Below are positions 12,479 to 59,771 of a stretch of 64,000 nucleotides of DNA, in pieces. Location of the stretch: positions 57,598,001 to 57,662,000 of the forward strand of contig OX597832.1 in assembly GCA_951406725.2 (NCBI GenBank), written 5' to 3'. The position numbers were made by a program, and so were the translations under genes. Every line of letters begins with the position of its first letter. The first letter of the stretch is position 1. Below the pieces are notes generated by a model. The model was not told the DNA's origin. It worked only from the letters and a program-made list of their open reading frames with translations, and searched no databases. Origin of the DNA: Octopus vulgaris. Its lineage: Eukaryota.

Positions 12479-12529
12479 TTTGTCAAAATATTTTCGTCGC
12501 TTTGAGACCACGACCTGTTCACTGACAAA
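12479..12529 (-). ncRNA. Minimal type I hammerhead-like motif with G3:C8 swapped core
   Basis: Minus strand: UUUGUCA-GUGAACA-G-GUCGU-ggucucaaa-GCGAC-GAA-AAUAUU-U-UGACAAA. Stem I 7 bp, stem II 5 bp, palindromic stem III AAUAUU. Confidence 0.62.
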
Positions 12530-14123
12530 GCTTTGTGCTGCATTGTAATTTCTTCTGTTATTCTTTTATTCTCTTACTTGTTTCAGTCATTTGTCTGTGG
12601 CCATGCTGGAACACCGCCTTTATCTGTTTGTGTTTATTTTTTTGCAGGAAATGTTCTGTCTTAGTTTGAGTTCTTGTTATTGTTTATAATAAACCTGTGT
12701 ACATTTGCTAATGTGTCAGCAGTTTAGTTGTCATTATGCATCTTTGATTTGTTGTTTTTTTTTTTCTAGATCTCATGTATCTTTTTATGTTGTTTGTACA
12801 TGTTGTGTGTAGCATACATGTGTAACACTTTTAGTTATTCGTCTTTGGTTCAAAGATCTCTTACAATTTTCGTTTTAGTTCAATAGTGGCCTGCATTGAG
12901 TCCTTTTTTTGTTTTGATGTAATCTGAAAGGACACAGACACCACTACCACCACCATGTGACATCCTTTGTTGCATGATTGACATTATGGTGTTTCTATTG
13001 AACCCTAAACCAATAGGCTATTGATCACAGTTGATGTGCTTTATTGGTTTCAAATTAAAGTCTGTTTATTTTATTTGTTGGTTTGTTGTGTTTGCAAAGG
13101 GGATAAATGTTGAACACTGCTCTCTCTCTCTCTCTCCTCTGTATGTTCTATTCCTCTTTCTTTTTCTCTCTATCTCTGTCTTGCTCTCCCCCCACTTGTT
13201 CTTTGTGTCTCTTTGTTTTGGAAATTCAATTTCTAAGAAATATAAAAGATAAATGGCCTAGTCAAGGAGTCTCAAACATTCTCAGCTGGTAACCTTCAAA
13301 ATGGATGGACTCTGGTCTGACATGCTTTTAAGATGCCAAATGTACTGATGGTCAGGCTTTTGGATCGCACCAAAGCTTGCAGAGCCTTATCGTGGAGTTG
13401 GAAGAGTTTTATGAAAGACAGACATTACATACAAACAGCCATACATCATCATCTGTTTTCCCTGCTAGCATGGGTTGGACGGTTTGTCTGTGCTTGTCTC
13501 CCCCAACCTCCAAGCTTGAACACCAGTGTTTTTGTGTTTATGTCCCTGAAACTTAGTGGTTCAGCAAAACAGATCGATAGAATAAGTTACCAGGCTTAAA
13601 AAGAAAATGGGGTTGATACATTCAACTATAAATTCTTCAAGGCAGTGCCCCAGCATGGCCACAGCCTAATGACTAAACCAAGCGGAAGATAAAAAATAAA
13701 TAATAAATGCAGGTTTTTCTCAGTGGTGTCCTTCATTACCAGTCTTCCATGGAAACATGTCTGGCCATCTGGAAATATTACCTTGCTTGGAAACAGGTGA
13801 AGGTTAGTGACAGGAAGAGCGTCCAGACAGGAAATCTGCTTCGACAAATTCTGTCTTAACCCATGTTACTCTCTCACCACCACTTGTCAACTGGTTTTAG
13901 CTTGTATATGGCGCTGTAACATAGTAGTTCAACAAAGGAGACCAACAGAGTATGTGCCAGGCTTAACAATGATTAGCAAGGTCAATTTGTTTGACCAAAC
14001 CTTTGGAGGTGGTACCCCAGCATGGCCACACACACACACATATATGCATGTATATATATGTGTGCACACACACAAACACATGCACACACACACATACACA
14101 CACACACACACATATATAGGAGC

Positions 14124-14568
14124 GGCGTAGGAGTGGCTGTGTGGTAAGTAGCTTGCTTACCAACCTCATGGTTCTGGGTTCAGTCCCACTGTGTGAAACC
14201 TTGGGCAAGTGTCTTCTACTATAGCCTCGGGCTGACCAAAGCCTTGTGAGTGGATTTGGTACATGGAAACTGAAAGAAGCCCATCGTATATATGTGTATA
14301 TATATATATATATGTATATGTATGTGTGTGTATGTGTGTGTGTGTGTGTGTGTGTGTGTGTGTATATATATTTGTGTGTCTGTGTTTGTACCCCCAACAT
14401 CGCTTAACAATCGATGCTGGTGTGCTTACGTCCCCGTAACTTAGCGGTTCAGCAAAAGAGACCGATGGAATAAGTACAAGGCTTACAAAGAATAAGTCCT
14501 GGGGTCGATTTGCTCAACTAAAGACAGTGCTCCAGCATGGCCACAGTCAAATGACTGAAACAAGTAAA
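14124..14568 (+). mobile_element. tRNA-derived SINE family A, full length (CORE-like segment plus internal TA/TG microsatellite)
   Basis: A box TGGCTGTGTGG, B box GGTTCAGTCCC, then ACCTTGGGCAAGTG (CORE-like), microsatellite, and a 3' end TGACTGAAACAAGTAAA. At least 17 full or partial copies in the window. Confidence 0.88.
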
Positions 14569-15023
14569 GTGTGTAATTCTGTGTGAGTTAGAGGTTGGAA
14601 AGCCAACCAACTAAGGGATAGCACCTATCCATTATACTGCTGGTAGTAGTGTCCCCAGTTATTAATACCCAAGTGTTGTCTATTGCATGGCAATCTCACA
14701 ATTGAGTGTTATATATGGGCAGGGATAGTAAGTGGTTAACCCTTGATTTATACAGCAAATAAGAAAATGGAGAGGATACAAAAACGACATACATCAGCCG
14801 GCAAACATTTTAGTTTGTCTATTTATTCCAATGTATTGGAGGAATACACACACATGTGTGAGTGGTACAGATTATCAAAGGGAAAGAGCTAGTAATTGGT
14901 AATTGCAAAAACAAGGGCATGGAAGCATATAGGAAGAAGTGATCAACTGAGCAGATGAACAAATGAGTAAATGAACAGATTGTCTATAAAACCGAATGGG
15001 TGTGTAGGTGCTAGTTCCTATTT

Positions 15024-16242
15024 ATGTATGTATATATATATATATATATATATATATATATATTTATGTATGTGTGTGTGTATATATATATATATATATG
15101 TATGTGTGTGGGTATATATATATATATGTATGTGTGTGTGTATATATATATATATGTATGTGTGTGTGTGTATATATATATATGTATGTGTGTGTGTGTA
15201 TATATATATATGTGTGTGTGTATATATATATATATGTGTGTGTGTATATATATGTGTGTGTGTGTGTATATATATATGTGTGTGTGTATATATATATATA
15301 TATGTATATATATATGAATGTATATATATGTATATATATATATATGTATGTATATATATGTATATATATATATATGTATGTATATATATGTATATATATA
15401 TATGTATGTATATATATGTATATATATATATATGTATGTATATATATGTATATATATGTATGTATATATATGTATATATATATATATATGTATGTATATA
15501 TATGTATGTATATATATTTATATATATATATGTATGTATATATATGTATATATATATGTATATATATATATGTATGTATATATATGTATATATATATGTA
15601 TATATATATATGTATGTATATATATGTATATATATATGTATATATATATATACATATATGTGTATATATATATGTATATATATGTGTATGTATATATATG
15701 TGTATATATACATATGTATATATATGTATTTGTATATATATATATATATGTATATATATATATATGTATATATATATATATGTATATATGTATATATATA
15801 TCTATATATGTATATATGTATATATATATGTATATATATGTATTTGTATATATATATATGTATATATATATATGTATATATATGTATTTGTATATATATA
15901 TATGTATATATATATATGTATATATATATATGTATGTATATATATGTATATATATATATGTATATATATATATGTATGTATATATATGTATATATATATA
16001 TGTATGTATATATATGTATATATATATATGTATGTATATATATGTATATATATATGTATATATATATATATACATATATGTGTATATATATATGTATATA
16101 TATGTGTATGTATATATATGTGTATATATATATATGTATATATATGTATTTGTATATATATATATATATGCATATATATATATATATATGTATATATATA
16201 TATATGTATATATGTATATATATATGTATATATGTATATATG
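15024..16242. repeat. 1.2 kb (TA)n/(TG)n compound microsatellite
   Basis: Directly visible; similar arrays at 460-1010, 2020-2310, 8340-8800, 20487-20920, 39598-39710, 46355-46700. Confidence 0.97.
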
Positions 16243-57834: not shown

Positions 57835-58040
57835 TCATGCAGTTAAATATATGTCCGGTTATAGAGTGACCAATGATGTTGCATCCATAAAGCACTGAGC
57901 TTTATAGATGACTCTTCAGATTCTAATGGCAGAGGGCATATCTGCCTTTAGATTCTGACAAGTTATCTATAGAGTCAAGCACTTTATGAATGCGAAACTA
58001 TTGGTCACTCTCTGACTGGACATATACTTAACTGCATGTA
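57835..58040. mobile_element. Imperfect palindromic MITE-like fold-back, about 205 bp
   Basis: CATGCAGTTAAATATATGTCC...AGAGTGACCAAT...GGCAGA pairs with TCTGCC...ATTGGTCACTCT...GGACATATACTTAACTGCATG. Confidence 0.65.
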
Positions 58041-58044
58041 AATA

Positions 58045-58550
58045 CGAGGATGAGTCAAAAAGTAATGCCATTTTGTTTAGGACAAGTATAATTACCAACA
58101 CAGGAACATGTATCATACATCAAAATGAAGCTGGTCCTCTGTGAATCACATCCCTACTTCTCAACATAGTCACTGTTTCTCTCAATAGCAATGTTCCACC
58201 ATCGAATGAGAGCATGTATTGTTGCCCCATAAAATTCTGTTGACTGTTCTTTGAGCCACTTCTTCACTACAATTTTCACTTTCTTGTCATTGGAATAATG
58301 CGATAGTCTGAAGGCACTAAATCATAACATATAACTGTCGACCAAGTGTGGCATCCTATACGGGACAGTGCTACTGGCGTTTATAGCCCCTGGAAGATAC
58401 CTCTTCCAGCTGGCTAACGATACACATTCTGTGTAATTTCCTGAGTCTTTGAGCCCAGGGCACTGTGTGTGCGCATGCATGCTTGTGTGTGCACATGCAT
58501 GCATGTGTGCATGTGTGTGTGTGCACACATGCAAGAACACAGGCATGTTT
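58045..58550 (-). mobile_element. Second, one-armed copy of the same mariner derivative
   Basis: TA-CGAGGATGAGTCAAAAAGTAATGCC TIR; internal block nearly identical to 41046-41290 in reverse orientation. Confidence 0.85.
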
Positions 58551-59725
58551 GAGCATGCATACACACATATAAAATATGTTTGTATACATAAATACATACA
58601 TACACATGACTACATACACATGTACGCAGGGAATTACCATTAATGTTTGCAAAGTAATTTACTGACATTATGGTAAATATTCTGGATGAAGAGCAAACCG
58701 GAACTCAGTGTCTCAGGCTAAGTGATTCACACAGTTTTAATTAGTTTATTCAGAAATGAGAACCTTGCAAGTGTACAAAAACTAAATATTCTTTCCAAAT
58801 TCAATTTCCAAAATCCTTTCTGTCTTTTTAATGCTAACTCTAAATCCTAATCTAACCCTTAATCCTAATTCTAAACTCTAAACCTAAACTTCTTACTCTA
58901 AACCTAATCCCGTCCAAAATACTTGTTCAGAATCCATAAGCTAATCCCTAATGTGTGCGTGTGATTTCTTTTTAAGGATTGTAATCTCTTATGTTTAAAA
59001 CATAATTCCTCCAAAGAATGTCTCAGAAAACACTACAAGAATGTAAAAAGTTACAGCTGAGGGCTTACTCCCAAACAGAAAAGAGACAGAATTTAAAAAC
59101 TGAAATTGTGAAAAAAAATTTTTTATTTGCAGAATATATTCTCTGATGTTTGCATAGAATCCAAAGAAATTTTGGGAACTTGGGAATGAAAGCTACAGGG
59201 TAGATGTGCTGAGATGTATTGGCGTAAAGCACTGCTGACAGATACAATTTCATCACCATGCTGCTGTTGAATGGGTTTAATTTTAAACTACTGATTACTG
59301 GGTACCAAAGTACCCAGGCAATGCTGGGTACTTTGGTTAGTTTATGCATGCATGTCTGTGGGTGTGTGAGCAGGAGGGGGGACACCAGAGCGAGATGCTG
59401 TGTATCACATGGAAAAGGTAAGGTTAGAAACACCATTGTCCGAAAGTAAGCCAAACATGGAAGAGATATTGGTGAAGCAAAACCTCAAATAGTTTGAGCA
59501 TGCCTGAAGACTGGAAGGAAACTCAGCTAAAGAACAAATGTTTCCTTCACAGCTTGGCTATCAATGTGAAGGATCACAGAAGATCTGATCGCTCTGGCTG
59601 AGATTGTTGTTGGTAATCTCTTGATTCCCAACGAGAGAGGTGAACAGAAGCAAGAAATAGACAACAACATTATTATTTACATTATTTACATTTGACGGAT
59701 ATTTGTCCTCATCTTGTTTGTTGTT

Positions 59726-59771
59726 AACACAACGTTTCAGCTGATATACTCTCCAGCCTTCATCAAGTGTC
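59726..59771 (-). ncRNA. Degenerate minimal hammerhead motif (C3U, extra A after A9)
   Basis: Minus strand: GACAC-UUGAUGA-A-GGCUG-gagaguauau-CAGCU-GAA-ACGU-U-GUGUU. Confidence 0.58.

Follow-up and report, generated by a model that had tools for sequence, protein, structure and literature searches.

A 64,000-nucleotide stretch of the Octopus vulgaris genome (assembly GCA_951406725.2, contig OX597832.1, positions 57,598,001 to 57,662,000 of the forward strand; hereafter the window) carries five hammerhead ribozyme motifs, A to E, within introns of the gene IFT80. They are confirmed as genuine sequences of a known hammerhead kind, with cleavage predicted. Their layout and surroundings make it likely that they are the ribozyme-bearing pseudo-long-terminal-repeat (pLTR) ends of five different Penelope-like element (PLE) families, inserted as short 5'-truncated copies; we infer the PLE origin, the mode of insertion, and the cleavage alike. 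The class is known, and our addition to it is modest: the novelty, at the level of sequence, is an abundant family, A, whose catalytic core carries a G3:C8 pair in place of C3:G8. This swap was absent from an earlier note on the window, made from its letters alone, which had described the five motifs.

Five unrelated motifs with one hammerhead fold

The motifs are located as follows.

12479-12529, minus strand: hammerhead A; core GUGAACA, stem I 7 bp, palindrome AAUAUU, triplet UUU; G3 at 12522, C8 at 12517, extra G at 12515, G10.1-C11.1; predicted cut 3' of U17 at 12486
39336-39403, minus strand: hammerhead B; core CUGAUGA, stem I 4 bp, palindrome ACCUAGGU, triplet GUA; G10.1-C11.1, helix II region 41 nt; predicted cut 3' of A17 at 39340
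48013-48103, minus strand: hammerhead C; core CUGAUGA, stem I 6 bp, palindrome ACGUACGU, triplet GUC; G10.1-C11.1, helix II region 60 nt, enclosing a 10-bp hairpin; predicted cut 3' of C17 at 48019
48577-48637, plus strand: hammerhead D; core CUGAAGA, stem I 6 bp, palindrome ACGAUCGU, triplet GUA; A10.1-U11.1; predicted cut 3' of A17 at 48631
59726-59771, minus strand: hammerhead E; core UUGAUGA, stem I 5 bp, palindrome ACGU, triplet GUU; extra A, wobbles U3.G8 and G10.1.U11.1; predicted cut 3' of U17 at 59731

We searched the window with a descriptor consisting of N3-UGA-N-N8-A with positions 3 and 8 pairable, 4 bp or more of stem II within 90 nt, GAAA, an A...U stretch that can pair with itself, H17, and 4 bp or more of stem I. 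The descriptor was drawn up with the motifs already known, though according to published rules, and the palindrome is one of its built-in conditions. It returned exactly five matches, at the coordinates and on the strands that the earlier note had given for five sequence-unrelated motifs of one fold. The expectation that motif counts would exceed those of shuffled sequence was likewise borne out: against five real matches, 2591 dinucleotide-preserving shuffles in 500-nt blocks gave a mean of 0.026 and a maximum of two (no match in 2524 shuffles, one in 66, and two in one). The reversed window and the complemented window gave no descriptor match each, and the same five motifs were recovered under four descriptor settings, including one without the 3-8 condition.

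The type I core positions U4 G5 A6, A9, G12 A13 A14, A15.1-U16.1, and H17 are complete in all five motifs, as is the helix III palindrome with positions 15.2-16.2; stem I spans 4-7 bp and stem II 4-6 bp. Positions 3 and 8 form C-G in B, C, and D, G-C in A, and a mere U.G wobble in E. The cores of A and E deviate from the canonical CUGAnGA, a detail in which the earlier description is weaker than stated. The assignment to minimal type I hammerheads with a palindromic helix III of the PLE kind stands, as the layout fits the published consensus. Hammerhead E has the published minimal hammerhead (min-HHR) layout, with the extra A and the CG palindrome, less two C-to-U changes (part of the supplementary alignment of PMC4209133), and is likely a decayed copy. 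The five elements are unrelated in sequence, with none of the ten pairwise local scores above the maximum of 200 shuffles. Their stem differences, which had been offered as covariation, do not constitute strict covariation between unrelated families; within-family data concern A alone.

The palindromes of B, C, and D are 8 nt each. Paired as duplexes, the palindromes have energies of -0.2 (A), -11.4 (B), -9.8 (C), -10.0 (D), and -1.7 (E) kcal/mol. When dimers were folded freely, the double hammerhead was not the lowest-energy form for A and E. An Rfam scan of the whole window, the sole Rfam cover of B and E, gave no hammerhead among the 150 listed of 451 matches, those listed being microsatellite and hairpin noise. 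Local Rfam scans of 47830-49030 and 12330-12560 (motifs A, C, and D) found no hammerhead family at E<=10.

An abundant family with a swapped core pair

Hammerhead A belongs to a repeat with the following parts.

12339-12529, minus strand: family A repeat, very high-copy; the hammerhead followed by 140 nt of 3' sequence
12339-12430, minus strand: family A frame, first 30 codons; ATG at 12430, running to the 3' end of the repeat

Copies of family A were collected from contigs of the runs X1, X5, X12, and X11 (organism labels A, B, D, and A); X11 is RNA by guess only, and the contigs carry no RNA-end information. Over 12345-12528, summed contig depth reached 1-4.4 million in X1, 1.7-3.9 million in X5, and 0.15-0.67 million in X12, values that do not equal copy number and are read only as the mark of a very high-copy repeat. 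Depth on single flank contigs around family A was 38-54. Many contig pieces stop at 12339, which is the 3' boundary of the family. On the other side, the copy in the window diverges past 12529 and a short interspersed nuclear element (SINE) follows at ~12553; since 12529 coincides in this copy with the diverged patch and the SINE, it is not a proven element start, and we rejected as unproven the proposal that the element begins exactly at stem I. The SINE-like repeat abutting the 5' side (12553-12620) has at least 12 other matches in the window and a summed depth of ~30 million. Another short repeated segment, at 12046-12114, reaches a summed depth of up to ~160,000-210,000 in X1 and X5.

Among family A copies aligning through the core, G3:C8 is the majority state. 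Reversion of G3 to C lies below 3% among aligned contigs, because the C>G change was counted in none of the four runs; for position 12517, the tally excludes G>C in X11 and X12 and does not strictly do so for X1 and X5, a G>C place being unlisted there. All three listed stem variants keep pairing: U.G to C-G at 12510 (92-96%), U-A to U.G at 12483 (10-28%), and G-C to G.U at 12499 (5-9%). The other three listed variants sit in loop II (4-25%), and none of the listed variants alters both partners of a pair. Family A is thus a multi-copy family with a kept core and stem-compatible variation. Stem and core conservation among genomic copies, a check set by the earlier note, holds for A, the one family compared; of the large, diverse set that the note proposed, at least family A is very high-copy.

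Opposite-strand joints within the family, such as 12442/12529, were seen among 15 listed of 136 (4 contigs in X1, 6 in X5, and 2 in X12), a pattern that inverted truncated copies would be expected to leave. One organism B contig follows the flank as far as 12338 and then continues with 31 non-aligning letters, a single-contig hint that insertion A is absent at this site in organism B. A search of metagenome contigs with the family A motif pattern gave no match.

The 30-codon peptide of family A shares 90% identity with the N-terminus of the O. sinensis gene model P0004 and 77% with that of P0005, an O. bimaculoides gene model. Between the two models, agreement is 86% across 154 aligned residues; the frame, continuing for at least 150 residues in both species, thus runs well past the usual end of the repeat. 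Family A copies end 92 nt inside the frame, the ATG of which lies 56 nt past the predicted cut, and 12339-12430 is likely the N-terminus of the element's open reading frame (ORF). P0004 continues into a methyltransferase domain and is probably a chimeric gene model. Its N-terminal part may resemble PLE N-termini, including in a GxKF-like stretch, a likeness that no search confirmed. The description of the elements as non-autonomous gives way to 5'-truncated ends of coding PLEs as the likelier form, since family A ends within a longer frame.

It is possible, if doubtful, that this very abundant Octopus family was amplified with a swapped G3:C8 core capable of cleavage, be it in dimers or aided by a PLE protein, which would be the first animal example of a swap known from mutagenesis. 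If so, selection on the active fold would be shown by the compensation of both bases and by stem variation limited to wobbles, and the family would offer a natural handle on what PLE hammerheads are for. The spread of a family with a compensated core would argue for selection on active-site geometry. Standard CUGAnGA descriptors miss G3:C8 cores. B and C, if truly of this kind, would add hammerheads with 40-60 nt helix II inserts. The presence of five unrelated families within 64 kb suggests that the Octopus hammerhead set is dense and diverse.

Inverted and tandem copies at insertions B and D

Two of the five insertions show internal copy structure.

39171-39602, strand not assigned: insertion B; minus-strand element whose last 115 bp recur as an inverted, 5'-truncated copy, ending at (TA)n
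48367-48537, minus strand: family D inverted copy, 5'-truncated in the catalytic core, lacking the stem I 5' strand and C3-U4
48537-48673, plus strand: family D first direct copy, holding hammerhead D
48674-48763, plus strand: duplicated target flank between the direct D copies, (TA)n plus an RTE long interspersed nuclear element (LINE) 3' fragment; recurs at 49074-49176
48756-48972, plus strand: family D second direct copy; its motif at 48796-48856 has GAAA changed to GUAA, fails the descriptor, and is predicted inactive

The arms of insertion B (39171-39285 and 39488-39602) flank the motif and are 94% complementary over 115 nt. At D, 48367-48537 matches 48803-48972 at 97-98% (166 nt at 98%). 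The two direct D copies had been reported as a pair of motifs at 48577 and 48796; the former is intact and the latter, with its GUAA, is not. Because the spacer between them is copied target flank, their 219-bp spacing is not a retrozyme monomer. Within the window, inverted 5'-truncated or partial-tandem copies of the PLE type thus occur at B and D; no inverted or tandem structure was seen at C and E. Partial tandems with an adjacent inverted 5'-truncated copy are described as typical of PLEs, and the inverted copies at B and D with the direct copy at D reproduce that arrangement (bioRxiv 2021.04.23.441226).

An open 43-codon frame at 39144-39273 on the minus strand, beginning 62 nt beyond hammerhead B and 103 nt short of where the inverted arm ends, is a possible ORF start of family B with the same geometry as in family A. 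At D, an ATG at 48584 on the plus strand starts at the first base of stem II and opens a frame that ends after ~20 codons; the ORF of the Anolis PLE likewise begins at stem II (PMC11167929). Hammerhead D and its inverted neighbor are predicted to form a ~90-bp near-perfect hairpin (48430-48690, plus strand; -143.6 kcal/mol, z -23.7), which, lying in the sense of the IFT80 pre-mRNA, may be a candidate substrate for adenosine-to-inosine editing. Contigs covering 47700-49300 contain part of the region in 20 of 24 sequencing-run rows (best share 0.47), with no RNA run among the rows listed. A (TA)6+ tract lies within 230 bp of three of the five motifs, and 13-28% of window positions are equally near; the proposed enrichment next to (TA)n is not upheld by these figures.

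The IFT80 setting

Two IFT80 exons map to the window.

28571-28717 (approximate), plus strand: IFT80 exon, residues ~505-553 of P0001
51806-51976 (approximate), plus strand: IFT80 exon, residues ~555-611 of P0001, with a GT donor at its end

The 57-residue frame at 51806-51976 on the plus strand is 100% identical to P0001 ("transport 80 homolog [Octopus vulgaris]") and also matches IFT80 chains in PDB. As only these two exons of P0001 map and the neighboring ones are presumed to lie beyond the window, the remainder is IFT80 intron. All five motifs fall outside both exons, in agreement with the intron setting described earlier. Since the window is all intron save these exons, the intronic location of the motifs is uninformative. 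Relative to IFT80, A, B, C, and E are antisense and D is the only intact sense motif; this bias of four in five is not significant (one-sided p ~0.19).

Comparison with known hammerhead elements

The min-HHR class, its within-genome family diversity, and its dispersed truncated copies were described in 2014, when thousands of such motifs per animal genome were reported (PMC4209133). The window motifs resemble the "small palindromic helix III" group of that study in the core, GAAA, palindromic helix III, long helix II, and short helix I, in the extra nucleotide after A9 found in A and E, and in the occurrence of many unrelated families per genome, mostly as dispersed single motifs. They differ in several respects: the core covariation there is U3-A8 (natural U3-A8 cores are given in PMC4209133 and PMC3088659), whereas family A has G3-C8; at 41 nt in B and 60 nt in C, the helix II region exceeds the lengths found in the part of the alignment covered; no extra nucleotide follows A9 in B, C, and D; and positions 10.1-11.1 of D are A-U. 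The mollusc examples in the supplement are Lottia and Crassostrea, with no cephalopod in the part of the alignment examined. The schistosome motif showed no cleavage as a monomer and low cleavage as a dimer (PMC4209133). For small PLE hammerhead variants, reviews likewise describe a diminished palindromic stem III, association with PLEs, and cleavage as dimers (PMC6765202, PMC7761336), the last two being predictions for the window motifs.

The closest functional comparison is with the Poseidon element PAc of Anolis carolinensis, which likewise has a hammerhead near its ORF start and AT-rich targets (PMC11167929). Its RNA is reverse-transcribed uncut, from a point 111-118 nt inside the ORF, and its copies end ~110 nt into the ORF; the end of family A copies 92 nt into the frame matches this reported geometry. 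The PAc hammerhead cleaves only with protein, and catalytic mutants did not block insertion in vitro. An engineered C3G/G8C change gave partial rescue and keeps partial cleavage in PAc, the natural core of which is C3-G8, whereas family A has G3:C8 naturally. PAc further differs in that its ORF begins at stem II, as opposed to the family A ATG 56 nt past the predicted cut; for the octopus motifs, no link to a reverse transcriptase (RT) or endonuclease was obtained.

Thirty Penelope families are among the recently active insertions of O. vulgaris, in a text that, in the part covered, has no ribozyme discussion (PMC13282606). The wording "probably unannotated" in the earlier note was therefore overstated. 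Our literature searches, covering titles and the beginnings of abstracts, found no description of octopus or cephalopod hammerheads. To our knowledge, Naiad elements lack hammerheads. Searches for a natural G3-C8 core found none, with the largest survey (Lünse 2017) outside their coverage; the G3-C8 or C3G/G8C cases met were all engineered (PMC8495972, PMC3884650, PMC11167929), and the part of PMC13725137 covered held nothing.

Proposed mechanism and alternative explanations

We propose that transcription of a full-length PLE elsewhere in the genome would pass its pLTR and enter the beginning of the ORF that follows, and that RT would begin copying ~90-110 nt inside that ORF, on uncut RNA, by target-primed reverse transcription. 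RT would usually stop early and leave a 150-500 bp piece with a whole hammerhead, often with an inverted partial copy through strand switching. The hammerheads would act in the parent transcript and cut slowly, as dimers through the self-complementary helix III or with the help of a PLE protein; B, C, and D might also, as monomers, form a 2-bp helix III with a tetraloop. The compensated G3:C8 swap of A is predicted to retain partial activity. For IFT80, the copies are probably passive, as four of the five motifs are antisense and the sense motif D is predicted to be trapped in a long hairpin.

Several observations weigh against a PLE origin with active ribozymes. At the level of the fold, A combines a UUU triplet with its weak palindrome duplex, the minimum-energy monomer folds retain stem I in A, C, and D and lose it in B and E, and published PLE hammerheads cut poorly in vitro (PMC4209133). 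As to copies, the data concern family A and none of B, C, D, and E; six variants of motif A are listed, with 28 further variant rows outside the listing. Depth in X1 is 1.9 million over the A core, less than half of the 4.3 million over 12483-12505, and other cores could therefore be present in copies whose alignment is clipped in loop II or close to the core. On the protein side, no RT or GIY-YIG domain was obtained in linkage to any of the five motifs, and Pfam gave nothing significant on 24 read-through frames around them. Among 1129 candidates, none of 392-2000 aa was a relative of the P0004 N-terminal part, and the A frame had no named match in Atlas (top score 0.80) and a best E of 0.24 in PDB, all three blanks being weak evidence. 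P0005 gave 297 pattern matches in metagenome contigs, none confirmed. Within the window, no PLE ORF was detected by Pfam, in the ORF list, or by a regex screen for RT and GIY-YIG motifs, which found only two LINE-type YADD and two chance DKG matches; here the earlier note had said the same.

An alternative is that family A, and perhaps others, is now a dedicated, PLE-derived, SINE-like non-autonomous element of ~200 bp with its own transcription. We consider this unlikely. The very high depth is limited to ~190 bp with a sharp 3' boundary and no full-length protein was found, but heavy 5' truncation by itself yields such a depth profile, the 5' limit at 12529 is a diverged patch plus SINE rather than a proven start, and the frame continues in the O. 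sinensis and O. bimaculoides models. It is decidedly improbable that some families, best B, C, and D, are non-LTR retrozymes, that is, non-coding tandems that are cut, circularized, and mobilized by PLE proteins. Metazoan retrozymes share with the window motifs a type I hammerhead in an animal repeat and a short helix III with a palindromic loop, and the 2-bp helix III with tetraloop known for invertebrate retrozyme hammerheads (PMC7229834) is permitted by the 8-nt palindromes of B, C, and D; there are also two direct D copies 219 bp apart, and the data on a link to an ORF concern A. However, the D spacer belongs to the target flank, (TA)n plus an RTE fragment, rather than to a monomer, each of B, C, and E occurs as a single copy, and the helix II regions of 20-60 nt depart from the canonical retrozyme dimensions (helix I of 6 bp, helix II of 4 bp plus a short loop). 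Retrozymes also differ from the inverted truncated copies at B and D and from the ORF start in family A, and no head-to-tail arrays of 150-450 bp monomers were found in the window regions examined, so that the retrozyme alternative of the earlier note is not supported.

Domestication of the motifs as intronic ribozymes regulating IFT80 pre-mRNA, comparable to the conserved amniote intronic hammerheads, is highly improbable. All five do lie in introns of one gene, but this means little in a near-wholly intronic window, four of the five are antisense, the predicted -143.6 kcal/mol hairpin would lock up the sense copy D, and the single organism B contig hints that insertion A is absent there. The prospect that the motifs are chance matches in AT-rich repetitive DNA is close to negligible: no shuffle among 2591 exceeded two matches, reversed and complemented controls gave none, and the same five appeared at four settings, against which stand a descriptor that postdates the sight of the motifs and Rfam scans without a hammerhead match. 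Ribozyme-bearing PLE ends remain, in our judgment, the best account of the five motifs.

Other elements in the window

An uninterrupted LINE frame of 1059 codons at 16695-19874 on the plus strand contains an AP endonuclease, an RT, and a PHD-like finger by Pfam; we take it to be RTE-like, and it is possibly a recent insertion. An Rfam scan of its 5' region (16280-16900) found no ribozyme family. Broken frames at 31400-31800 on the plus strand resemble a restriction-like endonuclease of R2/R4-type LINEs, and Pfam gave nothing significant on six frames of 31082-31800. The ORF list further contains decayed element fragments at 3072-4614 (plus strand) and at 2561-3052, 38443-38988, and 41213-41506 (minus strand), which probably comprise an L1/Tx1-like RT (YADD at ~3960), two mariner-like transposase ends, and the 3' end of a LINE.

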